Of a stretch of 18,980 nt of DNA, positions 2,717 through 17,260 are shown in pieces (the stretch's first letter is position 1; each line of letters opens with the position of its first letter). Below the pieces are notes generated by a model that searched no databases, had not been told where the DNA came from, and saw nothing but the letters and a program-made list of their open reading frames with translations. The translations under genes and the position numbers were made by a program. This stretch comes from Candidatus Altiarchaeota archaeon (GTDB lineage Archaea; Altiarchaeota; Altiarchaeia; IMC4; SCGC-AAA252-I15). The stretch spans positions 1 through 18,980 of the forward strand of contig JAZDIN010000029.1 in assembly GCA_043804895.1 (NCBI GenBank), in the 5' to 3' direction.

Positions 2717-2806
2717 AGCGAGGGAAGGGATTTGAACCCCTGATTGTACGGTTAACTGCAGTCGGCTGTTGCAGACCGTTCCGTTTGGCCTCTCCGGCAC
2801 CCTCGC
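2717..2806 (-). tRNA. trnC: tRNA-Cys(GCA) with a 15-nt intron at position 37/38 (intron 2754-2768)
   Basis: Minus strand folds as acceptor GCGAGGG/CCCTCGC, D arm CCG-GAGAGGCCAAA-CGG, anticodon arm ACGGT-CT GCA A[CAGCCGACTGCAGTT]A-ACCGT, T arm AGGGG-TTCAAAT-CCCTT, discriminator U73. The intron forms a bulge-helix-bulge (CTGC/GCAG helix, AAC and TTA bulges). CCA is not encoded. Confidence 0.95.
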
Positions 2807-3755: not shown

Positions 3756-5246
3756 CTATCTGCCTGAGATTATCTCCTCCACGATTTCTTTGGAGGAGTT
3801 TTCGTAGCGTATTCTTTTCTTGTGCGGGTCTTTGTATCTGATTAACTCAAGGGGGTTGGGTTCGTCAGTCGACGCTTTCTTGCCTGGGGTGAGTGGATAC
3901 ATGAGGGGGGAGTTGTACAGGTGCCTTAGCTCTTCTACTCCAAGTCCTGTTGCAATGAATAGGAACTCATTTATCGTCGGTTTCACCTCATCCTCCCCGG
4001 TTAAAAACTCGTGGAATCCTCCGATGTCTGAGAGCATTTCTGGGGCTGTGTCCTGGATGTACCTCTCAAGGTTCTCGCCTTTCCCTGCGATTGGGCTGTA
4101 GACTATGCTGACTAGCTGGTCTTTTGTGATTCCGATGTTTAGGGCGAATTCCTCGGCTTTGCGTCTCTGCGCCTCTATCCTCTCAGGGGAGCTGTACCTG
4201 CCTAAGGTCTGTTGAATCGTCTCTTCGTGGAATTCCTTCTTGTCCATGAGGTATTCTGCAAGCTCCAGGTACTCTAACACTCCCTGGTTGTACCCCCTAC
4301 CCTCTGCTTCCGCGCTTAAGCCTCGCAGGTGGCACATCAAGAGGGGGTGGCAGCAGTCCGATTCTGAGAAGTTGAGCGTGTTCTCGGAGAGGCTGAATCC
4401 GATGTGGTCTTTAAAGAAGCTCCAGTGCTTTTTGATTGTGTAGTCTGTGAAATCGAATATGGATATGAATTCGAATTCCTGTTCGATTCCATTCTTCTGG
4501 TCGCCGAACCGTCCACTCCCTGTTTTTATGCCGTGTATGTCCCTGAAAACTATCTCTCTCAGGTTAAGGACCTTCTCCAGATTCTTGCGCACCAGGTCCT
4601 TGAAGTCCAGCTTGTTGAGGCCTGTTCTTTTTAGGATGTCCTGCATCCAAGTGTGGTATTTACTAAGTTCGTCGTTTGAGTCGCCGGTTATGACGAAGTG
4701 GATCCCATCAGGCAACTGCGATATGAACGAGGAAATCAGGTGCAGGTTGCACGAGGCGCAGAATGTGGTCCTCGGGTCGCCGTGGGAGCGGTGGCCTGCC
4801 ATTAATATGTCCTCCCTGAGGAGGGCTACTTTCTCCTTGGGTATTGCGTACTCTGGTGAAAACTCCGCGATTTCACCGTAGCAGTATATGTTGCATTGGA
4901 CCCTGTCTGCGTCGCCTTTGACTCCCAGGAAGGAGTAGACTAAATCGATGTTGTCGAGTATCCCTTTGCTGGTGCCAAGATGGACCATGGTGACTACTTG
5001 TAGGTTGAATGTTTCCCCGCATTCCTTGGCGCATATTAGCTGGGCTAGGCGGGTGAATGTCAGGGACCATGTTGAGTCCTTGCCTCCCCCGTAGCCTACC
5101 AGTATGTTGGTATCTCCTAGTGTCAGGTCTCTTCTTTTTGCGGCGTTCCTGATGTGTTCGGCGAATTTTAGCGCGTTGCTGTACTCCTCTTCCCCGACAG
5201 CCAGCCTTATCGTCTCCAGGGTATCCTCTGGTGCCGTTTTTTCCAT
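3756..5246 (-). CDS. Adenine-nucleotide alpha-hydrolase (PP-loop) superfamily enzyme of unknown substrate
   Basis: 496 aa; LVGYGGGKDS is a PP-loop variant (SGGxDS-like); also FCASC (CxxC), VITGDS and ESDCCHP. Confidence 0.75.
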   Translation of the reverse strand: MEKTAPEDTLETIRLAVGEEEYSNALKFAEHIRNAAKRRDLTLGDTNILVGYGGGKDSTWSLTFTRLAQLICAKECGETFNLQVVTMVHLGTSKGILDNIDLVYSFLGVKGDADRVQCNIYCYGEIAEFSPEYAIPKEKVALLREDILMAGHRSHGDPRTTFCASCNLHLISSFISQLPDGIHFVITGDSNDELSKYHTWMQDILKRTGLNKLDFKDLVRKNLEKVLNLREIVFRDIHGIKTGSGRFGDQKNGIEQEFEFISIFDFTDYTIKKHWSFFKDHIGFSLSENTLNFSESDCCHPLLMCHLRGLSAEAEGRGYNQGVLEYLELAEYLMDKKEFHEETIQQTLGRYSSPERIEAQRRKAEEFALNIGITKDQLVSIVYSPIAGKGENLERYIQDTAPEMLSDIGGFHEFLTGEDEVKPTINEFLFIATGLGVEELRHLYNSPLMYPLTPGKKASTDEPNPLELIRYKDPHKKRIRYENSSKEIVEEIISGR

Positions 5247-5668: not shown

Positions 5669-6013
5669 TCAAGCGAAGAGAAGCTCTGAGACTGCGGGCA
5701 GTACGACGTAGATGAGAAGTGCCGTGAGCACCGCATAACTGACGAGGCTGACAGCTATCAGGCTCTTCTCCTTTTTCACGTCACATATCCTACAGGTTCC
5801 GCCGGAATTCCTCTTCACAGTCATGTAAAGCGACGAGAGCAGGAATAATGTGCCTGCCGCGGCGAAGAACATCTTGTACCTCGGTATCTTAAGCGCGGCC
5901 GTCATGCTCCCACTCCCAAGCGCGCTGAACACCAGCACTAGGGCGAGCGGGAGGCTACAGCAGCTTGAAGCTATAATCGCTGATTTTAGTCCGAGCCAGA
6001 GTCCTTTAAACAT
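5669..6013 (-). CDS. MerT-like small membrane protein (heavy-metal transport candidate)
   Basis: From ATG 6013: ASSCCSLPL in the first TM, a cytoplasmic-loop CRIC, and three hydrophobic segments. Confidence 0.7.
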   Translation of the reverse strand: MFKGLWLGLKSAIIASSCCSLPLALVLVFSALGSGSMTAALKIPRYKMFFAAAGTLFLLSSLYMTVKRNSGGTCRICDVKKEKSLIAVSLVSYAVLTALLIYVVLPAVSELLFA

Positions 6014-6126
6014 TTTATAAACTGTGATTATTCTCCTAATAGTTGAATCAACAATTAATAAGCGAAAGAACGGAAATGAATTAACGGAATACAATCGGGG
6101 ATATTCATGCCCCCTAAAAGCCTAAA

Positions 6127-6894
6127 ATGTCTGCAAAGGCGGCCTTTTTTGACGTTGACGGCACTTTAGCCAAAGGTTACCTTATCATAGACTTCCCCCA
6201 TTATTTACATGAAAAGGGACTGTTCAATCCGGAGGAAATTGAGTTCATCAACCAACAATACGCAGGATACAAGAAAGGGGAGATAACCTACCTGACACTT
6301 GCCAGATCCCTCCCTGAGGCTTATGCAAGGGGCATCAAGGGCCAAAAGGAGTCTGATGTGGTTGAATGCGCAAGGAATTTCGTTTCAGAGCATCCTGAAA
6401 GAGCATTCTCTTTCTCCAAAGGTCTTATCGAGCTTGTTAAATCACGAGGCTTCGAGCCTGTTCTTGTAAGTGGCTCCCCCCAGGAGATAGTCCAAGCCTT
6501 CGGAGATTCAATCGGCGCTGGCACCTGTTTGGGGACGGAATGCGATATCAAGGACGGTGTGTACACTGGCGGTCTCAAACTGAATGCTGCGATATTCGTG
6601 ACGAAGCGCGGTCTCGTTGAGTCATACGTTAAAGAAAACAAGTTGAACCCTCTGCTTTGTGCGGCCTTCGGCGATACTGACAGGGATTTGGCGCTCCTAG
6701 GAATGGTCGGATTCCCGGTTGCCATAAACCCTAACAAACGGTTTCGTAGCTTTGCAGAGGCGAAAGGTTGGTTAGTGTGCGGTGGCGACAATGTAATACC
6801 TGAAGTTGAGAAGTATCTGCAAATCTCAAATGATATCTCACCACCTAACACTTCAAATACCGTTACTAGGCTAGAAAAACGTCTGAATTCGTGA
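6127..6894 (+). CDS. HAD-superfamily hydrolase, subfamily IB (SerB/PSP-like)
   Basis: FFDVDGTL (motif I), LVSGS (II), conserved Lys, AFGDTDRD (IV), PVAINP. Confidence 0.88.
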   Translation: MSAKAAFFDVDGTLAKGYLIIDFPHYLHEKGLFNPEEIEFINQQYAGYKKGEITYLTLARSLPEAYARGIKGQKESDVVECARNFVSEHPERAFSFSKGLIELVKSRGFEPVLVSGSPQEIVQAFGDSIGAGTCLGTECDIKDGVYTGGLKLNAAIFVTKRGLVESYVKENKLNPLLCAAFGDTDRDLALLGMVGFPVAINPNKRFRSFAEAKGWLVCGGDNVIPEVEKYLQISNDISPPNTSNTVTRLEKRLNS

Positions 6895-6917
6895 TGAAGA
6901 AAATTCGCCTAATCTCT

Positions 6918-7436
6918 TTATATCGCCGTGTCGTTTATTACTTGTGCTCCTCCGCTTGATGCTGCGAGCTCCACTATACGTTCTAAATCCACGACTTTCG
7001 GGTCGTATACTACCCAGCTGACCTCCTGCCTGTAGCCTATGCTCTTGCCCATGACTCCAGGCTCATGCTGGACGTTCTGCGCCACCGCCGGAACGCAGCT
7101 CGGGCAGAAATACTGTATGTCAAGGAACGCCTGCCTGTACCCCTTCCCGGCGTACCTGTCCAAGTACGTGCTCTTCTGGATTGTGGTGGTTGTGGTAGTG
7201 GAAGTCGACGTCGTCATGCTAGATGTTGAGGTTGATGCAACCTCCTCCTGGGTTGTTGAGGTTGAAGTCTCAGTGGATGAGGTAGTGGAAGTTGATGCTG
7301 TCGTGGATGTCGTTGACGTTATTGTGGTCTTTGTTGCTTCCTTCTCGCTTGTGTATTCGATGGAGTAGAATACCAGCCCCCCTGAGACAACCAGCAATAG
7401 GGCTCCAGTAAAAATAATATTTTCTGAGAGTTTCAT
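6918..7436 (-). CDS. Membrane-anchored protein with a Thr/Ser-rich stalk and an HMA-like CxxC domain
   Basis: N-terminal TM, about 55-aa T/S-rich linker, then YFCPSCVPAVAQNVQHEPGV...VVYDPKVVD resembling HMA/MerP/CopZ domains. Confidence 0.75.
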   Translation of the reverse strand: MKLSENIIFTGALLLVVSGGLVFYSIEYTSEKEATKTTITSTTSTTASTSTTSSTETSTSTTQEEVASTSTSSMTTSTSTTTTTTIQKSTYLDRYAGKGYRQAFLDIQYFCPSCVPAVAQNVQHEPGVMGKSIGYRQEVSWVVYDPKVVDLERIVELAASSGGAQVINDTAI

Positions 7437-7488
7437 GTTGAATATACTAGAAAAAGCTTAAATGTAAAAATAAATAATCATCTGGATT

Positions 7489-7518
7489 TTACCTGCATTT
7501 CCCGCATCCTGGCCCCAT
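7489..7518 (-). CDS. Putative micro-peptide MGPGCGKCR (or MEVNDMGPGCGKCR from ATG 7533)
   Basis: Minus strand GGAGGTGA-acgac-ATG GGG CCA GGA TGC GGG AAA TGC AGG TAA: perfect archaeal SD, with TTTTAAATAT about 40 bp upstream. Confidence 0.45.
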   Translation of the reverse strand: MGPGCGKCR

Positions 7519-7557
7519 GTCGTTCACCTCCATATGGTTTTATTATGTGGTTCCGTC

Positions 7558-7590
7558 ATATTTAAAACGGTCGGTAACCTCCGGGTTACC
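7558..7590. promoter_or_regulatory. Bidirectional TATA element plus palindromic operator upstream of the HxlR gene
   Basis: ATATTTAAAA at 7558-7567; perfect 7-4-7 palindrome GGTAACC-tccg-GGTTACC at 7573-7590, ending 7 bp before the ATG. Confidence 0.75.
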
Positions 7591-7597
7591 ATAACTT

Positions 7598-8029
7598 ATG
7601 AAAGCTGCGCAAACGAGGACGTTCAACCTGGATGAGTTCTGCCCGATAAGGCAGACTGTGAGACTCCTTGGGAAACAGTGGACCATGCTCATAATAAGCG
7701 AACTCAACTATGGGAAGCGGAAGAAGCTCAGCTTCATGGACCTAAGCCGGAAGCTTAAGAGCGCAAGCAGCAAAGTGCTCTCAGAAAGGCTTAAGGAGAT
7801 GGCGCAAGACAGCCTGATAAGGCGTAGGGTGGATGATACTTCTAAGCCTGCGAGGGTCTACTACTCTTTAACAAAGAAGGGCCGGGATGCATGCGACATA
7901 CTCGAGGAGTTCAAGAAGTACGGGCTGAAATGGGGCGACAAGAGGACGGTCGACTGTTCAACGGTTGAATGCGAACTGTGCCCTAGGAAGGACGAGGCTG
8001 CCGCATCAGCCTCAAGTGTTCGAGTTTGA
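7598..8029 (+). CDS. HxlR/DUF24 (MarR-type winged HTH) transcriptional regulator
   Basis: FCPIRQTVRLLGKQWTMLII...SSKVLSERLKEM...RVYYSLTKKG; N-terminal Cys as in thiol-sensing DUF24 members; C-terminal CxxxxCxxC. Confidence 0.92.
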   Translation: MKAAQTRTFNLDEFCPIRQTVRLLGKQWTMLIISELNYGKRKKLSFMDLSRKLKSASSKVLSERLKEMAQDSLIRRRVDDTSKPARVYYSLTKKGRDACDILEEFKKYGLKWGDKRTVDCSTVECELCPRKDEAAASASSVRV

Positions 8030-8416: not shown

Positions 8417-8815
8417 TCAGGCTTCTGTCTTCATTTTGAAGACTATGAATGCTGTTATGATTACTCCATACCCTAGGAGGACCCATTTCATCGGCACTAA
8501 GTCGGAGATTACCAATATCGTCCCGAATATGAGGGCTAGGAGGCCGGTCGTGAGTAGGATGGCCTCGACTATCGCCCTGAAGAAGGCTTTTTTAACTGCG
8601 TATCCTGTCTTTATCGCCTCCTCCTTCAGCTCCTCTACCTTCTCTTTAGCGTCTTCCTTGAAGTGCTGTACTCTCTTCTCAACCTCGTATCTCTGCGCCA
8701 TGAACTTTATCAGGAACGATCCCACGCTGTCGACGACGTCTAAGGCTGAGCCGAACGGAACTCCGCGGAGTAGTCCCTTAGGTTTCTCCTCCTTCTTATC
8801 CGACTTCTTCGCCAT
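8417..8815 (-). CDS. Membrane protein with a coiled segment and two C-terminal TMs (YqjE/holin-like, tentative)
   Basis: 132 aa; GAGGT SD; begins 1 nt after the stop codon of the upstream gene; hydrophobic C-terminal helices. Confidence 0.7.
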   Translation of the reverse strand: MAKKSDKKEEKPKGLLRGVPFGSALDVVDSVGSFLIKFMAQRYEVEKRVQHFKEDAKEKVEELKEEAIKTGYAVKKAFFRAIVEAILLTTGLLALIFGTILVISDLVPMKWVLLGYGVIITAFIVFKMKTEA

Positions 8816-8816
8816 C

Positions 8817-9122
8817 TTACCTCTTTTTCAGCTTAGACATGACGAACGCGCCGACTATCGCGCCTATCGCAGCTGATGCGAGTGCGGCTCCTGCAGGGTT
8901 CCTTCTGACTTCTGTCTCTATCCTCCTGCCTGCCTTTTGGACGTTCTTCTTCGCTATATTCCTGTACTTGCCTGCCTGCTTCTTCCAGTCCTTCCCTGAC
9001 ATCTTCACTGCCTTCTGGTAGTTTTCGACAAGCTTCTTCTCAGCGTTTTTGATTGCGTTCTTAATCCTGGTCTTCTGTGCTAGTGTCAGCACCTTTCTAG
9101 TAACCTTTTTCTTGCTAGCCAT
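8817..9122 (-). CDS. Basic tail-anchored protein, ElaB/YqjD (DUF883)-like C-terminus
   Basis: EVRRNPAGAALASAAIGAIVGAFVMSKLKKR matches the VRxNP-hydrophobic GxxxG-basic tail pattern; SD GAGGTGA and TATA TTTATATT upstream. Confidence 0.7.
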   Translation of the reverse strand: MASKKKVTRKVLTLAQKTRIKNAIKNAEKKLVENYQKAVKMSGKDWKKQAGKYRNIAKKNVQKAGRRIETEVRRNPAGAALASAAIGAIVGAFVMSKLKKR

Positions 9123-9172
9123 TTCATCACCTCAGAAATAATACTATAACTTGACAGTAGTATAATATAAAC

Positions 9173-10150
9173 TCATTCCAGCGTATATCCCCACCTCCAT
9201 TTCGTGTTCCTGTAAACGGCCTTCACCTCAGCTTTCAGGGCGTCTCCTTTCCTGACCTTCATCCTCTGGTCGTTCGGGAGGAAAACCTGCTTCCAGTGCG
9301 TCTGTGGCTTCCTCGGGTCTGTTGAGAGCGTCACATTCTTTGAGAGTTTCGCCTCAAAGTACATGACGCAACCGTGGAATTCCCCGTCCGAGTCCATCCT
9401 GAACCTTCCGCTGTATTTTATATTCTTTCCCCCCTCGGTTGTGAGGTCTATCTCCGCAATCCTCTGCGGTTGAGAGAGGAACTTCGACCTGCTCATGTCA
9501 TAATTCCTTATCTCATGCGGGACCTTCTCGACAGCGGAGTAGTCTACCTCATAGAGCATCCTCCAGAAGCCGAGGCCAGCGTCAGGCGACTCCACAGGCG
9601 CGAGGTATATGTCAATCCTCTCAGGCATGATTCTCCCTCCTTTTTTCAGGAACTTCAGGGCGTTTTCGGTCTTGTAGATGATGCCCTCGTCTGTTATGTG
9701 CATGCCCAAGAGCTCGCAGATTATGCAGTCGACCTTTTCTATATCCAGGTCTCTCAAGTCAGCCCTGATGAACTCAACATTTCCTATCCCGTTCTTCTTC
9801 GCCGTTTTTCCGGCCACATCTATTATGCTCGCTGAATCGACTCCGATGACCTTCCCAGCCCCTGCCTTAGCTGCCAGGAACGCTAGTATCCCAGTCCCAG
9901 TTCCGAGGTCCAGCACCCTGTCGCCAGGCTTCACAGTCTCCTCTATGGCCTTCCGGAACGCCTCAACCCTAACCCTGTCCTCAAGGAGCGTCCGGTGGAC
10001 GTCCAACTTAGACCACGTGTACTGGTAGGCCGTGTCAGTGAAAAAATACGCAGCCATCAAATCATCGAAAAAAATCGTCGAATCACTGGCCCTCATAATC
10101 AAATCACGCCACAGAATCCTCGGAATCCTCCTCAAATCAGAAAAAACCAT
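9173..10150 (-). CDS. Protein-arginine N-methyltransferase (PRMT)-like SAM-dependent methyltransferase
   Basis: VHRTLLEDRVR helix, VLDLGTGTGILAFLAAKAGAGKVIGVD, double-E loop IICELLGMHITDE, FLKKGGRIMP, FW..LYEVDYS, FHGCVMYF and LSTDPRKPQTHWKQ (THW loop). Confidence 0.88.
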   Translation of the reverse strand: MVFSDLRRIPRILWRDLIMRASDSTIFFDDLMAAYFFTDTAYQYTWSKLDVHRTLLEDRVRVEAFRKAIEETVKPGDRVLDLGTGTGILAFLAAKAGAGKVIGVDSASIIDVAGKTAKKNGIGNVEFIRADLRDLDIEKVDCIICELLGMHITDEGIIYKTENALKFLKKGGRIMPERIDIYLAPVESPDAGLGFWRMLYEVDYSAVEKVPHEIRNYDMSRSKFLSQPQRIAEIDLTTEGGKNIKYSGRFRMDSDGEFHGCVMYFEAKLSKNVTLSTDPRKPQTHWKQVFLPNDQRMKVRKGDALKAEVKAVYRNTKWRWGYTLE

Positions 10151-10152
10151 TT

Positions 10153-10677
10153 TTACTCGGTAGTTATGTCTGCTCTGTCTTTTCCGCCGTCGACTTCGGT
10201 GAGCCTTACCTTTATCTTCTCCTTCACTGAGGTGGGTATCTGCGTGCCTACGTAGTCTGCTGTTATTGGGAGTTCCCTGTGGCCTCGGTCTATGAGGGCT
10301 GCGGTTTTGATGCTCCTGGGCCTGCCGAATTTTATGAGGGCGTCCATGGCGGCCCTTATGGTCCTGCCTGTGGACATGACGTCATCGACTAGTATCACGT
10401 CTTTTCCGGTTATTGGAAACGGTATGTCAGTCCTGTCTTCTATGCTGCCGTCTTTTCGGTCGTCGCGGTACGGTCTCGTGTCCAACACCCCAAGGTGCAA
10501 TTCTATCCTGGCCTCCTCCTTGATTGCCTTTTGGATTCTTCCAGCCAGTGTGGCGCCCCTCGTCAATATCCCCACGAGTACGACGTTCCCCAGGTTAGCA
10601 TTTTCCTCGATAATCTCCTCAGTGACTTTTTTCACGCACTCCCTGAGCTCCAGATGGTTGAGCACCTGTTTTTTCAT
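10153..10677 (-). CDS. pyrR: PyrR: pyrimidine attenuation regulator / uracil phosphoribosyltransferase
   Basis: GILTRG, LD.RPYRDD, VILVDDVMSTGRTIRAAMDAL, GRP and LIDRGHRELPITADYVG. Confidence 0.92.
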   Translation of the reverse strand: MKKQVLNHLELRECVKKVTEEIIEENANLGNVVLVGILTRGATLAGRIQKAIKEEARIELHLGVLDTRPYRDDRKDGSIEDRTDIPFPITGKDVILVDDVMSTGRTIRAAMDALIKFGRPRSIKTAALIDRGHRELPITADYVGTQIPTSVKEKIKVRLTEVDGGKDRADITTE

Positions 10678-11321
10678 TTTCTAGATTTGTTTATCAGCGA
10701 CCTTACTATATCCACTGCCTTAAGCGAGTCCTTCTTCTCGACAATAAGGAACGTGTTGTCGTAGCTTGACGTCACTTCCACGACGTTTATCCTGCTGCCT
10801 CCGAGGGCCATCATGAGGTGGGCTATCACGCCCGGGGTTTCCACGATCTCCTTCGGGCTTGTTATTATTATGGCGCTGAGGTTGCTTATCCTCTTTATCA
10901 GGTTCTCCTTTTTATACCTGATCTCATCGAGGAGTTCGTCGTCGACGAGTATCGTGGTCGTGCCGATGCCTTGTATGTTCACGTAGAAGTTGCTAGTCTT
11001 CTTGCCCTCCGTCTGCAGCGGCTCCACCAAACCCCGTATATATACTATGCTTATGTCGTCCCGAAGTTGCAGCCTGCTTCTCCCGAAGATGCCTGAATAC
11101 CTTGCGTCCGCCTCCCTTTTGATTCTCCCACCAAGCCGTTGGAGCGCGACAGCTATCGTGCCTATGCTAGTGTTCCTTCCAGAAAGTGAGGACACCTCCT
11201 TTTGTATCTCCCTTGCAAGCCTTCTGTTGTTGGTTATTCCCATGCGGATTGCATCGTGTATCCGCAGGTCAGATTTTACTGCCTCCTCAACAGCGTCTGC
11301 GATTGACTTTTTTCCTTCCAC
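10674..11321 (-). CDS. Archaeal ACT-domain protein with a helical N-terminal (putative DNA-binding) domain
   Basis: Probable GTG start at 11321. N-terminal GITNNRRLAREI...TIAVALQR; C-terminal ACT-like ETPGVIAHLMMALGGSRINVVEVTSSYDNTFLIV. Overlaps pyrR by 4 bp. Confidence 0.8.
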   Translation of the reverse strand: MEGKKSIADAVEEAVKSDLRIHDAIRMGITNNRRLAREIQKEVSSLSGRNTSIGTIAVALQRLGGRIKREADARYSGIFGRSRLQLRDDISIVYIRGLVEPLQTEGKKTSNFYVNIQGIGTTTILVDDELLDEIRYKKENLIKRISNLSAIIITSPKEIVETPGVIAHLMMALGGSRINVVEVTSSYDNTFLIVEKKDSLKAVDIVRSLINKSRK

Positions 11322-11414
11322 GGTGTTATATATGTAACATCCTGTATAAAAATGTATCAAATAAAACACAAAGTTTTATCCATGTAACAGGATATCCTAT
11401 AACTGGGGATAACC
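11322..11414. promoter_or_regulatory. Divergent promoter region with several dyads
   Basis: GTTATATATGTAAC (11325-11338); ATAAAAC-acaaa-GTTTTAT (11361-11379); GTAACAGGAT/ATCCTATAAC (11384-11403, 8/10 palindromic); ATGTAACA occurs twice. Confidence 0.6.
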
Positions 11415-12674
11415 ATGGACGCAAAGGAAATACTGAAAAAGATTGAAGGGATGCCAATACCAAAAGTTAAAAAGACTTGTCTAGCATATTCAGGAGGACT
11501 CGACTCATCACTTGGTGTGGAATTCTTAAGAAGGATATACAAGGTCGATGAGATAGTCCCAGTCATGCTGGACGTCGGCCAAGGAGAGGAGGAGATAGAA
11601 GAAGCCTATCGTAAGGCAAAGATAATGGGGATAAAGCCGATCCTCGTGGACGTGAAGGAAGAGTTCACTGAAGTCTGGCTTGGCAAGGCTATACGCGCTA
11701 ACAGCAACTACAACGGCTACCCTGTTTCGACGTCGATGACAAGGCAGCTTGTCGCAAAGTACGTCGCCGAGGAGGCTGTGAAGCACGGCTGCGACTCCTT
11801 CCTCGAAGGCTGCACAGGCAAAGGCAACGACCAGTACAGGATGCACAACGTGTTCACCTACTTCGCTCCTGGACTTGAGGTACTGCAGCCTGTCCGCGAC
11901 TTCGACCTCACCCGCGGCGAGGAGGAACTACTCTGCAAGGAATGGGGCGTGCCGGTGAAAGAGCAGATAACAGGCGGAGACGACAAGACGATGTGGTGTC
12001 GCTCCATCGCCTCAGGCGCAGTCGACCTCAACCAGAAGCTCGCAGACGACATATGGATGTGGTTAGTTCCACCAGAGAAGGCCCCTGACAAGCCGACTGA
12101 AATCGAGATTGAATTCGCTGAAGGAATACCGGTCGCACTCAACGGCAAGAAAAAAACCCTCGCCGACATCATCATGGAACTGAATGTCCTCGGAGGCAAG
12201 AACGGAATCGGAAAAATAGACATGTTCGAGGACGGTATCATGGAGATGAAAAGCCGCGAAATCTACGAGGCCCCGGGAGCCCACATACTGCTGAAGCTGC
12301 ACAGCGACCTTGAGCAGTTGTGCCTGACGAAGGAGGAGATACAGTTCAAGAAGATGGTGGACGCGAAATGGTCTTACATGGTCTACCACGGGGAATGGTA
12401 TCACCCCCTGAAGGAGGACCTTGACGCATTCATAGAACAGAGCCAGAAGGTCGTGAACGGCACATACAAGGTCAAGTTGTACAAGGGCAACATAGACATA
12501 ATCGATCGCGAATCAGATACAGGTCTCTTCAACCAGGAGATGCGCTCCATAAAGAGCAGGGGATTCGACCAGCGCTGGAGCATAGGCTATGCGAAGGTGA
12601 AGGGACTGCCCTGGCTGATACTCGCCAAAGCAGGCAGAGGGAAGGCGGAATCACCAAAGAAAAGTCGTGCATGA
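11415..12674 (+). CDS. Argininosuccinate-synthase-family protein, divergent paralog
   Basis: Retains [23 protein letters not shown] and MKSREIYEAP; several citrulline-pocket motifs differ from canonical ArgG. Confidence 0.85.
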   Translation: MDAKEILKKIEGMPIPKVKKTCLAYSGGLDSSLGVEFLRRIYKVDEIVPVMLDVGQGEEEIEEAYRKAKIMGIKPILVDVKEEFTEVWLGKAIRANSNYNGYPVSTSMTRQLVAKYVAEEAVKHGCDSFLEGCTGKGNDQYRMHNVFTYFAPGLEVLQPVRDFDLTRGEEELLCKEWGVPVKEQITGGDDKTMWCRSIASGAVDLNQKLADDIWMWLVPPEKAPDKPTEIEIEFAEGIPVALNGKKKTLADIIMELNVLGGKNGIGKIDMFEDGIMEMKSREIYEAPGAHILLKLHSDLEQLCLTKEEIQFKKMVDAKWSYMVYHGEWYHPLKEDLDAFIEQSQKVVNGTYKVKLYKGNIDIIDRESDTGLFNQEMRSIKSRGFDQRWSIGYAKVKGLPWLILAKAGRGKAESPKKSRA

Positions 12675-12710
12675 AGGAGGGTGGTGGCTCAACCACCCGC
12701 CTTTAATATA
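12674..12710 (+). terminator. GC-rich hairpin after the ArgG paralog, followed by a TATA-like box for argH
   Basis: AAGG-A-GGGTGGT / loop GGCTCA / ACCACCC-G-CCTT (12674-12703), then TTTAATATA (12702-12710) about 24 bp before the argH ATG. Confidence 0.5.
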
Positions 12711-12733
12711 TCACTCCAATATTAGGGTATACT

Positions 12734-14245
12734 ATGGCGAAACTCTGGGGCGGACGGTTCGAGAAGGACTTCACGAAGGAGGTCGAACACTTCGTGCAAT
12801 CCATTGAAGTTGACAGCGAGATGATTCTCGAGGACATATGGGGCAGCGAAGCCCACGCCATAATGCTCGCCAAATGCGGCATCATCACGTCCAAAGACCT
12901 GAAGAAGATACTCCAATCCCTCGAGAAGGCCAGAAAAGACTATCAATCCGGCAAACTAGTCCTTCGCGAACACGACGAGGACGTCCACATGAACGTCGAA
13001 AATTACATCATCAAAGGCGCAGGCCCAGAGTACGGCGGAAAGCTCCACACTGCAAGAAGCAGAAACGACCAGGTCCTGGTCGACGCGAAACTGCACATAC
13101 GCTACAAGATACTTGATGTGAAGAAAAAGGTGGTGAACCTCCAGAACGTGTTCCTGAAGATAGCATCAGAGAACCTGGAGACTCCAGTTCCAGGCTACAC
13201 CCACACCCAGGACGCGCAGCCGATAACGCTCGCTTACTGGGCGACAGCATATGTCAGCGCACTCAACCGCGACCTGGAACGCCTGGACCACGCATACTCG
13301 AACGTGGACACGAACCCTCTCGGCTCCTGCGCCCTAGCCGGGACTAGCTTCCCGATAGACCGGATGATGACCACGAAGCTCCTAGGGTTCGGCGCAGTCC
13401 ACAAGCACAGCCTCGACGTGATAAGCTCACGCGACTTCGCAGCTGAGACGATGTGCGCCCTTGCGATACTGATGAGCAACCTCAGCAAACTCGCTGAGGA
13501 GATAGTCTACTGGAGCACATACGAGTTCGGCATACTCGAGCTAGACGACAGCTACACTGCAGGCTCGTCAATAATGCCGCAGAAAAAGAACCCGTGCGTG
13601 GCAGAACTCATACGCGGCCGCACAGGCCGTGTGTACGGTTCGCTGGTTCAGCTTCTCACCATGATGAAGGGGATACCGATGGGATACAACCGCGACCTGC
13701 AGGAGGACAAGCCCCCCCTGTGGAACACGTTCAAGGTGATTGAAGCCACTCTCGACGTCACAGCAGGTATGATAGATACGATGAAGGTGAACAAGGAGCG
13801 CCTCGCAGAGCTTTCTGGAGCGAACTTCACCACCGCGACGGAACTTGCGAACCACCTAGTCCGCGAGCACGGCCTCACGTTCAGGCAGTGCCATCACATA
13901 GTCGGCGGCCTCGTCGGCGAACTGCACAGGAAGGGGAAGAATTTCATGGACTTCGACGAAGTCCATAGCATACTGTCGAAGCACGGCGTTGAGGTGAGCT
14001 TCGACGAGATGCGGCAGATATTCGACCCGAAGAAGAACATACACACATACAGGAGCCTCGGTAGCACGTCTCCGAAGGAAGTCTCGAAGATGATGGTCGA
14101 ATTCAGGAAAAATGTCGCTGAGAATGTGAAGAAAATCAACTCCCAAGAGAAGAGGATAGAGGATGCAAAGAAGCTCACACAGAAGTTAACATCCGCAGCC
14201 CTGAAAGACGCGGACATGAGAAAAATAAAATGGCAAAAAAGGTAG
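12734..14245 (+). CDS. argH: Argininosuccinate lyase
   Basis: [46 protein letters not shown] and YNRDLQEDK. Confidence 0.97.
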
Positions 14246-15444
14246 TTCTAGCATACTCCGGCGGATTGGACACGAGCGTGATACTCAAGTGGCTGATAAA
14301 CAAAGGATACGAAGTCATAGCATACGTCGCAGACGTAGGCCAGGGAGACGACTTCCAGAAGGTCAAAAATAAGGCCCTCGCGGTCGGAGCGAAGAAAGTC
14401 TACGTTGAGGACTTGAAGGAGGAGTTCGTCCGGGACTTCGTGTTCAAGGCGTTGAAGTGCAACGCAATCTACGAGAACAAGTACCTGCTCGGGACTTCAG
14501 TCGCGAGGCCGCTGATTGCGAAACGCCATATTGAGGTAGCGCGGAAGGAGGGCACCAACATAGTCTCCCACGGCGCAACTGGGAAGGGCAACGACCAAGT
14601 CCGCTTCGAACTCACATACATGACTCTCATGCCTGGGGTGCACATAATCTCCCCCTGGAAGAACGACGAATTCCTCTCCCAGTTCCAAGGCCGCTCAGAC
14701 ATGCTAGAGTACGCGAGAAAGAACAAGATACCTGTGGAGGCGACGGTCAAGAATCCGTACAGCTCTGACGAGAACTTGATGCACAAGAGCTTCGAGGCCG
14801 GAATGCTCGAGGACCCTGATGCGCCAGCGCCAGCTGACATGTTCACAATGTCCGTGTCGCCGAAAGAAGCCCCAGACAAGGAAACCAATCTCAGAATAAC
14901 GTTCTCTAAGGGGGTGCCAGTGAGGGTGGAATGCGGCAACATCATTAAGACGAAGCCGCTTGACACCCTACTGTACCTGAACAAAATCGGCGGAGAAAAC
15001 GGTGTCGGCAGAATCGACCTCGTGGAAAACCGCTTCGTGGGCATGAAATCACGCGGAGTCTACGAGACGCCGGGCTACACAATCCTCAGAACAGCCCACA
15101 TGGACATCGAAGGCCTCACCATGGACCGCGAAGTCATGCACCTGCGGGACATGCTCACACCAAAGATATCAGAGCTCATGTATAATGGATTCTGGTTCTC
15201 ACCCGAGATGGACTTCCTGATGGCAGCGGTGGAGGAAAGCCAGAAGCACGTCTCAGGCACAGTCAAACTCAGCCTATACAAAGGCAACGTCACAGTCAAA
15301 GGCCGCAAATCCAGGGAAAGCCTATACGACGAGAACATAGCAAGCATGGACGTGCACGGCCGCTACGACCAGAAGGACGCGAAAGGATTCATCAAATTGA
15401 ACGCCCTCAGGCTCAGAACCTGGGCTGCGAAACACGGGAAGTAA
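14230..15444 (+). CDS. argG: Argininosuccinate synthase (canonical)
   Basis: [54 protein letters not shown] and [16 protein letters not shown]. Confidence 0.97.
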
Positions 15445-15470: not shown

Positions 15471-16568
15471 ATGGTTGTTAAGGGAAAGCACCCGCTTGAA
15501 GAATATCCGGATTCAGCAGTGAAATTTTCTGGTATTATGGGTTCTGACGAGCAACTAGCTGCCGCTGTGGACCAATCCTTTGCCAGCGCAAATATGTTCT
15601 CCCCTAACAACCCACAAATAGCTGAGAAGGAGTTTGTCGCACTCGCCTCCAAGGACCAGTATCTTAAAAAAATAATCATAGAATCTTTCAAACTCCCCCA
15701 AGAGACTGTGCTGGCCGCGTATTTCGCCAAACGCCACATGGACGAACTGGTCGGCGGTGTCAGAGTCCTAACTGAACTCAGTTCGCATGCCCCCCCACCC
15801 ACTCCAGCATTGACTCCAAAAGACAGGGAACCGGTTGCACTGCACAACTACGAGCCGTTCTTAGGAAACCCCGAAGATGCAGTTTCACGCGGCTTTGAGG
15901 GGACAGAATATGGGCAGGAAGTCTTCGCTGTGTTGGCAGACCTCTTGAACAGGCGGCCTTCGGATAAGCTGTTGGAGGTGTTATTTGTCGGTCCTGGTCG
16001 GGGTATTGAAGTCTATGATTTGATGCGACGTTTTGGCGACAAACTAAAGTTCACATTACTGGCCAATGAGAACCTTCTTGCAAACCCGGATTACCTTCAC
16101 CTCAGGTCAAAGTCATATGTCATGTCAGACAGTTCAGGGAAGATTTCCCCAAACCTGAATTATGGGCCTGAAAACTTCCCGCCTCTCAACCTTGGCCAAT
16201 TCCCGCTTACAAGCCCTGATGAGGCGAAGAAATACACAGATGCGATGAGGGAAGGCCTTAAGATAGGCAATTTCGAGGACATGTTTTTTCCTGACTCAAG
16301 CTTCGACTTTGTAGTTTTCGGCAAATCAACAGTCCTCTACTGTGATGACCTAAACAGCGTCTTTAACGAGGCTAAACGGGTTCTTAGGCCGGATGGCTCG
16401 GCATTGATACCTCTAATAGACATCATAGGGGTCGGTAAAGCCTTGGGGCATCATGCCCTCCCACGAGTAAAGAAGATGTGCGATAACTACAGTGACTGTT
16501 CTATGATGGAACACTCACTCAAGATAACCAACAATTCCCCGGACAAGTTGGTTCTCAGGTGGATATGA
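15471..16568 (+). CDS. Class I SAM-dependent methyltransferase-like protein with an unrecognised N-terminal region
   Basis: VLFVGPGRG (motif I-like), FEDMFFPDSSFDFVV and FNEAKRVLRPDG. Confidence 0.7.
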   Translation: MVVKGKHPLEEYPDSAVKFSGIMGSDEQLAAAVDQSFASANMFSPNNPQIAEKEFVALASKDQYLKKIIIESFKLPQETVLAAYFAKRHMDELVGGVRVLTELSSHAPPPTPALTPKDREPVALHNYEPFLGNPEDAVSRGFEGTEYGQEVFAVLADLLNRRPSDKLLEVLFVGPGRGIEVYDLMRRFGDKLKFTLLANENLLANPDYLHLRSKSYVMSDSSGKISPNLNYGPENFPPLNLGQFPLTSPDEAKKYTDAMREGLKIGNFEDMFFPDSSFDFVVFGKSTVLYCDDLNSVFNEAKRVLRPDGSALIPLIDIIGVGKALGHHALPRVKKMCDNYSDCSMMEHSLKITNNSPDKLVLRWI

Positions 16569-17260
16569 TGAAGCCTATCAGAATACTATACCTCTCCCTT
16601 CTAGCTGTCGTCACCTTACTGCTCCTACCCTCCATCCTCTCCCATTTCATCTGGCTTATGGGCGGCGAAGGCCTGCCGAACATCGTGAAGGGTAGGTGGG
16701 ATATTGCGGCAGTGAACGTGCTGTTCTTCGGGTTCTTCATAGTCCTGACTCAGTATCGGCGGCGCGTCGACTGGCGTTCCAGGAACATCTACATAGCGTT
16801 CATCATAGCCCTATTCGCTGAGATGTACGGGTTCCCGCTGACCGCGTACTTCATGGCCAACTATTTCGGCACGGTCCCGGTGGACTATGAACCTGCGTAT
16901 AACCTCTCCCTCTCCTTTATGGGGGTGTACTTCACCCTCCCCACGATGATGATAGTCGGGGGAGCAGTCACAGTATTCGGCCTAGCCCTCATAACCGTAG
17001 GCTGGTACCAGATATACAAGAGCAAGGGAGGCCTCGTCACAAACGGTCTCTACAAGTACTCGCGGCATCCGCAGTACGTCGGCATACTCCTTGTCACCCT
17101 CGGCTGGGTGATACACTGGCCGACGATAATAACGATACTCCTATGGCCTGCCTTGGCTGTGATATACTTCCGACTCGCCAGGGCAGAGGAGTCTGATGTT
17201 AGGAAGGAATACGAGAATGAGTTCGAAAAATACGCCAAGGTAACCCCGATGTTCATCTAG
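16565..17260 (+). CDS. Isoprenylcysteine carboxyl-methyltransferase / PEMT family membrane protein
   Basis: Multiple TMs; ALFAEMYGFPLT, GLVTNGLYKYSRHPQYVG, EE and TPMFI. ATG 16565 overlaps the upstream stop (ATGA). Confidence 0.88.
   Translation: MMKPIRILYLSLLAVVTLLLLPSILSHFIWLMGGEGLPNIVKGRWDIAAVNVLFFGFFIVLTQYRRRVDWRSRNIYIAFIIALFAEMYGFPLTAYFMANYFGTVPVDYEPAYNLSLSFMGVYFTLPTMMIVGGAVTVFGLALITVGWYQIYKSKGGLVTNGLYKYSRHPQYVGILLVTLGWVIHWPTIITILLWPALAVIYFRLARAEESDVRKEYENEFEKYAKVTPMFI

Follow-up and report, generated by a model that had tools for sequence, protein, structure and literature searches.

The locus we investigated lies at positions 9173 to 15,444 of an 18,980-nucleotide (nt) stretch of DNA (contig JAZDIN010000029.1 of assembly GCA_043804895.1, from a Candidatus Altiarchaeota archaeon); this whole stretch is called the window in what follows. 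On its plus strand a gene for an altered relative of argininosuccinate synthase (ASS, encoded by argG), here called the ArgG-like gene, is followed by argH and by a canonical argG. On the minus strand a gene for a protein with ACT units is followed by pyrR and by a gene related to the protein arginine methyltransferases (PRMTs). The well-supported unit in this arrangement is the operon of the ArgG-like gene, argH and argG, which faces the gene of the probable ACT sensor; the two share a putative promoter region in which one box is repeated. We tentatively favor the reading, to which we would not commit ourselves firmly, that this is a sensor-controlled arginine operon, and that PyrR and the PRMT were added to the operon of the sensor in one lineage of the Altiarchaeota. 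The original prediction for this DNA was that of a co-regulated arginine or guanidino system. This prediction is upheld in part: the shared promoter region with its box, the PRMT core and the altered ArgG are confirmed, whereas a pathway to a guanidino metabolite finds little support.

Both sets of genes are compact. The stop codon of pyrR and the start of the PRMT-like gene are separated by 2 bp and the ACT gene overlaps pyrR by 4 bp, while on the other strand 59 bp separate the ArgG-like gene from argH, and argH overlaps argG by 16 bp (Table 1). The coordinates of the open reading frames (ORFs) confirm the layout that had been proposed for the locus, with its 2-bp gap, 4-bp overlap, 93-bp intergenic region and two ArgG genes, the length of 93 bp being valid only for a start of the ACT gene at the GTG at 11321. 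The longest ORF for this gene reaches 11369; we placed the start at 11321 because the protein collection contains the 215-amino-acid (aa) form and the relatives of the protein are about 211 aa long. The G+C content of the window ranges from 44 to 56%. A Pfam domain scan, which covered 22 ORFs of the window, found PRMT_C together with a class-I methyltransferase domain, Pribosyltran, ACT_7, two Arginosuc_synth/Arginosuc_syn_C pairs, and Lyase_1 with ASL_C2 at the locus. Among the matches listed for the PRMT-like, ACT and ArgG-like proteins, the nearest homologs that bear an organism name come from Candidatus Altiarchaeota or Altiarchaeales; by these names alone, the window would be that of an Altiarchaeota-like archaeon.

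Table 1. Features of the arginine locus, in order of position in the window.
Feature	Position	Strand	Description
PRMT-like (P0001)	9173-10150	minus	325 aa; predicted type-I PRMT-fold methyltransferase dependent on S-adenosylmethionine (SAM); last gene of the minus-strand unit
PyrR (P0002)	10153-10677	minus	174 aa; PyrR-family phosphoribosyltransferase/regulator
ACT gene (P0126)	10674-11321	minus	215 aa from GTG 11321; four-helix N-domain (DUF7523-like) and tandem ACT
Divergent intergenic region	11322-11414	no strand	93 bp
ArgG-like (P0004)	11415-12674	plus	419 aa; PP-loop ligase, altered pocket
argH (P0006)	12734-14245	plus	503 aa; argininosuccinate lyase
Canonical argG (P0005)	14230-15444	plus	404 aa; argininosuccinate synthase

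The region between the two divergent units contains a 17-nt box twice, 50 nt apart: GTGTTATATATGTAACA at 11323-11339 (box 1) and an 82% copy at 11373-11389 (box 2). A dyad, TGTTA-N6-TAACA, lies inside box 1, and a palindrome at 11384-11403 is centered on GGATATCC (11390-11397). The core of the box, TTATNNATGTAACA, a pattern that was chosen post hoc, occurs twice in the 18,980 bases, against 0.07 occurrences expected, and both copies are in this intergenic region; none of 200 shuffles gave two. AT-rich, TATA-like stretches are found at 11343-11352 and 11374-11381. Box 1 is placed between the former and the start codon of the ACT gene; box 2 overlaps the TATA-like TTTTATCC, about 35 nt 5' of the ArgG-like start codon. 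Judged by archaeal promoter geometry, the spacing on the ACT side suggests compatibility with a leaderless transcript. We regard the boxes, the palindrome and the TATA-like stretches as putative promoter and operator elements. A scan for bacterial promoters and terminators, a type of scan that is unsuited to archaea, gave background level only. The proposal of two divergent units that share one short promoter region is supported, and this region carries the repeated box. The description of this region as rich in dyads holds in part: there are the repeated 17-nt box, one dyad and one palindrome, but the dyad content is modest.

The ACT protein is probably an amino-acid sensor and possibly a DNA-binding regulator. 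Its match to ACT_7 scores 26.3 bits, just below the cutoff of 27, and its relatives score 33.9-43.6; relatives also match the first 60 positions of the Pfam family DUF7523. The predicted structure (predicted local distance difference test score, pLDDT, 89.2) has four helices in residues 7-80 and then two beta-alpha units of ACT type (beta-alpha-beta-beta-alpha-beta), and its best Foldseek matches are the regulatory domains of threonine- or lysine-binding aspartate kinases (E 6e-8). The tandem ACT fold is what the protein has in common with the regulatory subunits of aspartate kinase and with ACT transcription regulators. It differs from these in standing alone and in its four-helix N-terminal domain, which is akin to the start of DUF7523, and it belongs to a large uncharacterized archaeal family. 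Residues 1-82 have no sequence match in Pfam, NCBIfam or the PDB, the PDB profile search having hit the ACT part only. In the Atlas, the model of these residues matches large clusters of archaeal ACT proteins (template modeling scores, TM, of 0.82-0.89), one of which has 1024 members with Thermoproteota as the commonest phylum. Helices 2 and 3 of the modeled domain may resemble a helix-turn-helix. A search of the accessible literature for DUF7523 (PF24367) found no papers. The pairing with the ArgG-like gene described below provides a first functional context for this large archaeal DUF7523/ACT family.

As a stand-in for linkage in the relatives, we counted homologs that lie on contigs of identical length in bp with matching source labels. 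Chance identity in length is not to be neglected for short contigs, although we estimate that fewer than one such coincidence is expected; long ones cannot coincide by chance, and all matches agree in source label. The counts for the ArgG-like protein are lower bounds (its homologs are the 120 best-scoring of 7997 proteins, all 7997 of them significant), and occurrence on the same large contig does not amount to adjacency. Counted in this way, at least 10 of the 35 ACT relatives have an ArgG-like protein on their contig (contigs of 2138, 5288, 5388, 10091, 15064, 18932, 28589, 41348, 116263 and 120302 bp). On the shortest of these contigs the two genes are adjacent, because together they fill 1929 of its 2138 bp. 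The PRMT orthologs are linked less regularly: 6 of 23 are on a contig with an ACT relative (3364, 6992, 41348, 85526, 116263 and 120302 bp), and at least 3 of 23 on one with an ArgG-like protein (41348, 116263 and 120302 bp). ACT relatives that are linked to a PRMT are 56-68% identical to the ACT protein of the window; those at 47-55% identity have an ArgG-like partner and no PRMT. The conserved linkage joins the ACT gene to the ArgG-like gene, not the PRMT to arginine genes. The simplest history starts from an old pair of ACT and ArgG-like genes; a single lineage would have recruited the PRMT, and probably pyrR, into the ACT operon, and some of its members would later have lost or relocated them.

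A conserved linkage of the PRMT to arginine genes, as the original prediction had it, does not agree with the 3 of 23 PRMT orthologs that share a contig with the ArgG-like gene, nor with the distribution of the ArgG-like family, which extends far beyond the PRMT clade. The prediction had also named an observation that would speak against it, namely PRMT homologs in sister genomes that are unlinked to arginine genes and do not co-occur with the ArgG paralog. Here the outcome, as far as the stand-in for linkage goes, is mixed: these 3 of 23 do share a contig with the paralog, and most PRMT orthologs show no such link among the matches listed.

The patchiness of these links is in keeping with an adjacency that was inherited without any common function: the forebear of a single Altiarchaeota lineage would have acquired the PRMT, and perhaps PyrR, 3' of its ACT gene by accident. 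An ACT relative is present on only 4 of the 11 contigs that bear a PRMT and reach at least 8.9 kb, and is missing from the other 7, and the neighbors of distant PRMT-like genes, discussed below, are heterogeneous. However, the 2-bp and 4-bp junctions favor co-transcription with the ACT gene, and the PRMT orthologs on linked contigs range from 51 to 69% in identity. A quick tree of 24 PRMT orthologs and five outgroups, which is weakly resolved, puts the ACT-linked contigs on several different branches, the deep-branching P0028 among them, with unlinked ones interspersed. This spread suggests that the arrangement was retained for a long time, and we consider an adjacency without common function rather unlikely.

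The ArgG-like protein and the canonical ArgG of the window share 35% identity. The former has NF010392 as its best NCBIfam model, with 399 bits where the cutoff is 512, and it passes the cutoffs of TIGR00032 (362.5 against 268) and NF001770 (367.5 against 334). Its best solved relative is ArgG of Mycobacterium tuberculosis (252 bits). The two genes that follow it are ordinary members of their families by wide margins over the model cutoffs: the argH product scores 537 bits with TIGR00838 (cutoff 279.5), in addition to its Lyase_1 and ASL_C2 domains, and the product of the second argG gives 564.7 bits with NF001770 (cutoff 334) and 487 with TIGR00032. The best 120 members of the ArgG-like family include 119 relatives (P0162-P0280) at 67-79% identity, which are annotated throughout as argininosuccinate synthase. 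The named sources among the matches listed are Altiarchaeota, an uncultured archaeon, Planctomycetes, Armatimonadota, Brocadiia and Desulfohalobiaceae, and the nearest Atlas cluster is mixed (bacteria 56%).

We mapped the active site by aligning the 120 family members with the canonical ArgG of the window and the ArgG of locus L018, one of the distant loci described below. The numbering is that of human ASS, transferred by motif from what we take to be the human sequence. All 24 mapped positions have the canonical residue in the canonical ArgG of the window. In contrast, Ser180 is replaced by Gly, Glu191 by Ala, Arg272 by Gly and Thr17 by Ser in 120 of 120 members of the ArgG-like family. The other 20 sites are kept or conservatively changed, the kept ones including Tyr87, Arg95, Gly117, Asn123, Asp124, Arg127, Arg157, Asp182, Ser189, Glu270, Tyr282 and the PP-loop positions. 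The aspartate site is intact in every member, with Thr or Ser at Thr119 and with Asn123 and Asp124, and the PP-loop SGGLDSS is present. The segment 180-193 is ungapped, and the mapping is consistent with the HMMER alignment to ArgG of M. tuberculosis. P0004 retains 6 of the 7 residues that contact citrulline, and lacks the full set of citrulline and ATP contacts that includes Ser180 and Glu191. The human contacts were taken from the available part of PMC13289927, which describes Ser180 and Glu191 as very sensitive to substitution, with little or no activity for S180N, S180I and E191Q.

Compared to ArgG/ASS1 and ArgH as known elsewhere, P0005 and P0006 are thus standard. P0004 keeps the PP-loop and the aspartate site and passes two ArgG cutoffs, but it differs in the invariant Gly, Ala and Gly at Ser180, Glu191 and Arg272 and in falling below the cutoff of its best model. 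The residues therefore point to a family in which adenylation and the chemistry with aspartate are probably kept and the acceptor pocket appears to be remodeled. The claim that the first ArgG of the locus is altered is borne out by its low identity to the neighboring argG and by these changes at conserved positions of the active site. This family is the cleaner lead and the most interesting item of the locus, being widespread and very conserved without Ser180 and Glu191: either the textbook active site of ASS tolerates more change than was thought, or many genomes hold a misannotated enzyme. According to the available part of PMC8407392, ArgG and ArgH are present in 77.3% of Altiarchaeota genomes and are called laterally acquired; which type of ArgG is meant is not evident there.

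The PRMT-like protein has, C-terminal to its class-I methyltransferase domain, a match to PRMT_C (PF22528, the oligomerization or beta-barrel subdomain) of 74 bits against a cutoff of 27, and among solved structures it is closest to PRMT6 and PRMT1 (E ~1e-32). Motif I, VLDLGTGTGIL, aligns with motif I of PRMT6 and PRMT1, and none of D81, G83, T84, G85 and G87 varies among 24 orthologs. The two catalytic glutamates of the double-E loop of these enzymes, nine residues apart, correspond to E146 and E155, which are likewise invariant. The THW loop, T284-H285-W286, also aligns with that of PRMT6 and PRMT1, with H285 and W286 invariant and T284 present in at least 90% of the orthologs. An N-terminal extension contains a conserved RILWRD motif in the alignment of the 24 sequences. 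The structural model (pLDDT 84.1, predicted TM score 0.81) matches PRMT6 (4c08) with a TM score of 0.78-0.80 and E 2e-26. Residues and model together indicate a structurally complete enzyme of the predicted type-I PRMT fold. The catalytic core of an arginine methyltransferase is complete, with motif I, double-E loop, THW loop and PRMT_C all present. The enzyme belongs to a clade of 23 relatives at 50-73% identity, and the next relatives are at 36-37%.

The likeness to the eukaryotic type-I enzymes PRMT1, PRMT3, PRMT6 and PRMT8 extends to the Rossmann SAM domain, the three motifs and the C-terminal beta-barrel. The protein differs from them in its identity of about 27%, its archaeal source, its operon with PyrR and the ACT gene, and the conserved RILWRD extension; in addition, the region of the dimerization arm is mostly helix-free in the model. 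If it is a true protein arginine methyltransferase, it provides an archaeal case of a modification that is usually studied in eukaryotes, and one that is tied to amino-acid status.

PyrR is an ordinary member of its family, as judged from its sequence. The top NCBIfam matches of P0002 are five PyrR models, of which NF003549 gives 190.9 bits against a cutoff of 138; the four others, among them NF003548 (199.6 against 218), are below their cutoffs. Many representatives share 40-56% identity with the protein, and matches at E <=1e-30 number 161. In 41 homologs, D98, D99, V100 and R105 of the phosphoribosyl pyrophosphate (PRPP) motif are invariant, and T103, G104 and T106 are present in at least 90%. 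Sequence family, PRPP motif, length and the score with NF003549 are shared with bacterial PyrR, the attenuation protein of the pyr operon and uracil phosphoribosyltransferase. In contrast to the latter, the PyrR of the window is encoded in an archaeal genome and adjoins arginine rather than pyr genes, and the window has no RNA element that PyrR would bind (none at E <=1 in the window, none at E <=10 in 9000-12900). RNA targets of this PyrR would be expected at pyr genes in other parts of the genome.

RNA-binding proteins are typical substrates of the type-I PRMTs of eukaryotes. The PRMT-fold enzyme could methylate arginines of a partner from its own operon, either the RNA-binding PyrR or the ACT protein, and in this way tune regulation. 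The short gap of 2 bp that separates pyrR from the PRMT-like gene would fit such a role, as would four arginines of PyrR (R71, R105, R108 and R131) that are invariant in the 41 homologs. However, no RNA target of PyrR was found in the window, and we consider this explanation highly improbable.

If the favored reading of a sensor-controlled arginine operon is correct, then this is a chromosomal locus of arginine biosynthesis, in which the plus-strand operon (ArgG-like gene, argH and argG) and the minus-strand operon (ACT gene, pyrR and PRMT-like gene) would be read from the 93-bp intergenic region as a bidirectional promoter. The ACT protein would bind an amino acid, most simply arginine or an intermediate of its pathway, through its pair of ACT units that resemble those of aspartate kinase, and it would act at the two boxes, so that both operons would answer the same signal. 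PyrR may add a pyrimidine-nucleotide input or may simply salvage uracil, and either role would fit the branch point at carbamoyl phosphate from which arginine and pyrimidine synthesis depart. The PRMT-fold enzyme would most likely methylate protein arginines, with its expression tracking the arginine status, and would not catalyze a step of the arginine pathway. The ArgG-like enzyme would still adenylate a ureido or carbonyl group and use aspartate as the nitrogen donor; it may be a variant argininosuccinate synthase, or may act on an analogue of citrulline whose adduct ArgH could cleave. PyrR and the PRMT probably share a transcript with the sensor in this organism and in some members of the clade, which makes it likely that here they are co-regulated with the arginine status.

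Several observations weigh against this reading. The searches of Pfam, NCBIfam and the PDB recognized no DNA-binding family in the N-terminal domain of the ACT protein, and the statistic for the box rests on a pattern picked after inspection of the data. Seven contigs that bear a PRMT (8.9-59 kb: 59157, 26448, 23335, 22790, 16001, 12894 and 8900 bp) have no listed ACT relative or ArgG-like protein, and seven contigs with both ACT and ArgG-like genes have no PRMT ortholog, while the order of genes on shared contigs is readable only for the very short ones. To these can be added the lack of an RNA element for PyrR in the searches given above. Finally, these data do not separate protein arginine from free arginine as the substrate of the PRMT-fold enzyme.

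The latter distinction matters for a different explanation, in which the ArgG-like enzyme and ArgH make a non-standard guanidino compound or extra arginine, and the PRMT-fold enzyme N-methylates a small molecule as SznE/StzE does. According to the available part of PMC11705231, SznE/StzE of streptozotocin synthesis is an arginine-guanidino methyltransferase that acts on free L-arginine, and the existence of enzymes of this kind, which had been cited in favor of the metabolite, is thus confirmed. Like it, the PRMT-like protein is a methyltransferase that might take a guanidino group as its target. The distant relatives of the PRMT-like protein include Streptomyces proteins at 31-33% identity, but SznE itself was not identified among the matches, and the kinship is a lead only. 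The sensitivity of human ASS to substitutions at Ser180 and Glu191, together with the uniform loss of these residues and of Arg272 in a family that keeps its aspartate and ATP sites, would be consistent with this explanation. So would the position of the ArgG-like gene directly 5' of argH and beside a separate canonical argG, with which it is not obviously redundant, and the presence of two more methyltransferase-like genes 3' of argG.

On the other hand, only 3 of the 23 PRMT orthologs, a lower bound, share a contig with an ArgG-like protein, and the ArgG-like family, with 119 archaeal and bacterial relatives among the matches listed, is much wider than the PRMT clade. In the 22 ORFs of the window Pfam detects neither an oxygenase (SznF-like or other), nor an exporter, nor a typical tailoring gene. 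The locus thus differs from the SznE/StzE system, and the methylated guanidino metabolite that had been suggested as one product of this system has no tailoring or export gene in the window that would point to it. We consider such a pathway improbable. We consider it slightly more doubtful still that the ArgG-like protein is an aspartate-dependent ligase other than ASS for a different ureido or carbonyl substrate, whose adduct ArgH would cleave to a guanidino compound other than arginine, the whole being governed by the ACT sensor and the PRMT-fold enzyme methylating the small-molecule product in one Altiarchaeota lineage.

The surroundings of more distant PRMT-like genes also bear on the guanidino pathway. 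Among the matches listed from genome contigs we assembled 80 loci (1.2 Mb) with 54 near-full-length PRMT-like genes; none of the near-full-length matches exceeds 41% identity and none is from Altiarchaeota. A tblastn search of the 80 loci found no ACT or ArgH relative; it found ArgG in one (L018), about 6 kb away and on the other strand, and PyrR-like segments in two others or the same. The 54 genes are immediately flanked by 104 ORFs, none of which has an ArgG, lyase, phosphoribosyltransferase or ACT domain, and thus no arginine gene is a direct neighbor, which argues against the guanidino pathway. In its favor, the PRMT-like genes of two Streptomyces loci (L043, 4186-5652, and L048, 8140-9633) adjoin iron-containing redox proteins of the Haem_oxygenas_2 family, an arrangement that, by analogy, may recall the SznE/SznF pair, which methylates and oxidizes free arginine according to the available part of PMC11705231.

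Very large proteins with multicopper-oxidase domains (~1260 aa) are encoded downstream of the PRMT-like genes in L044, L048 and L049 (Streptomyces and Pseudonocardiales), and these actinobacterial loci look like natural-product clusters around a PRMT-fold enzyme. In Woesearchaeota and Hermodarchaeota (Asgard), PRMT-like genes of 29-33% identity have unrelated neighborhoods (L021, L041 and L046). The Hermodarchaeota locus L046 was considered as a further link to PyrR and rejected: its phosphoribosyltransferase, encoded downstream of the PRMT-like gene, pairs with a phosphorylase of the PNP family, and a GNAT gene on the opposite strand intervenes. Literature searches on archaeal and bacterial PRMTs, ArgG paralogs, arginine metabolism of Altiarchaeota and DUF7523 found nothing on this locus.

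The two methyltransferase-like genes 3' of argG begin 26 bp after it and overlap each other by 10 bp; they may share a transcript with the arginine genes. The first (15471-16568, plus strand, 365 aa) is recognized only in the C-terminal half of its class-I methyltransferase domain, and the second (16559-17260, plus strand) encodes a methyltransferase-like membrane protein of the ICMT/PEMT type. On the other side of the locus, two small ORFs on the minus strand (8817-9122 and 8417-8815) lie 3' of the PRMT-like gene and have no family match. A 50-bp gap precedes the first of them and contains a TATA-like stretch and a ribosome-binding site, GAGGTGAT; because this ORF has these elements of its own, the PRMT operon probably ends at 9173.

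Farther from the locus, positions 5669-8029 contain a possible metal-handling cluster, whose candidates are a weakly MerT-like membrane protein (5669-6094), an ORF with a weak MerTP or metal-binding C-terminus (6918-7436) and an HxlR-type regulator (7598-8029). The ORF at 3756-5246 (minus strand, 496 aa) is without a match in Pfam or NCBIfam. A tRNA gene of 90 nt at 2717-2806 (minus strand), for Cys (GCA), has a 17-nt insert just 3' of the anticodon loop and is compatible with an archaeon; ARAGORN assigns it a four-base anticodon, of which an intron is the probable cause.

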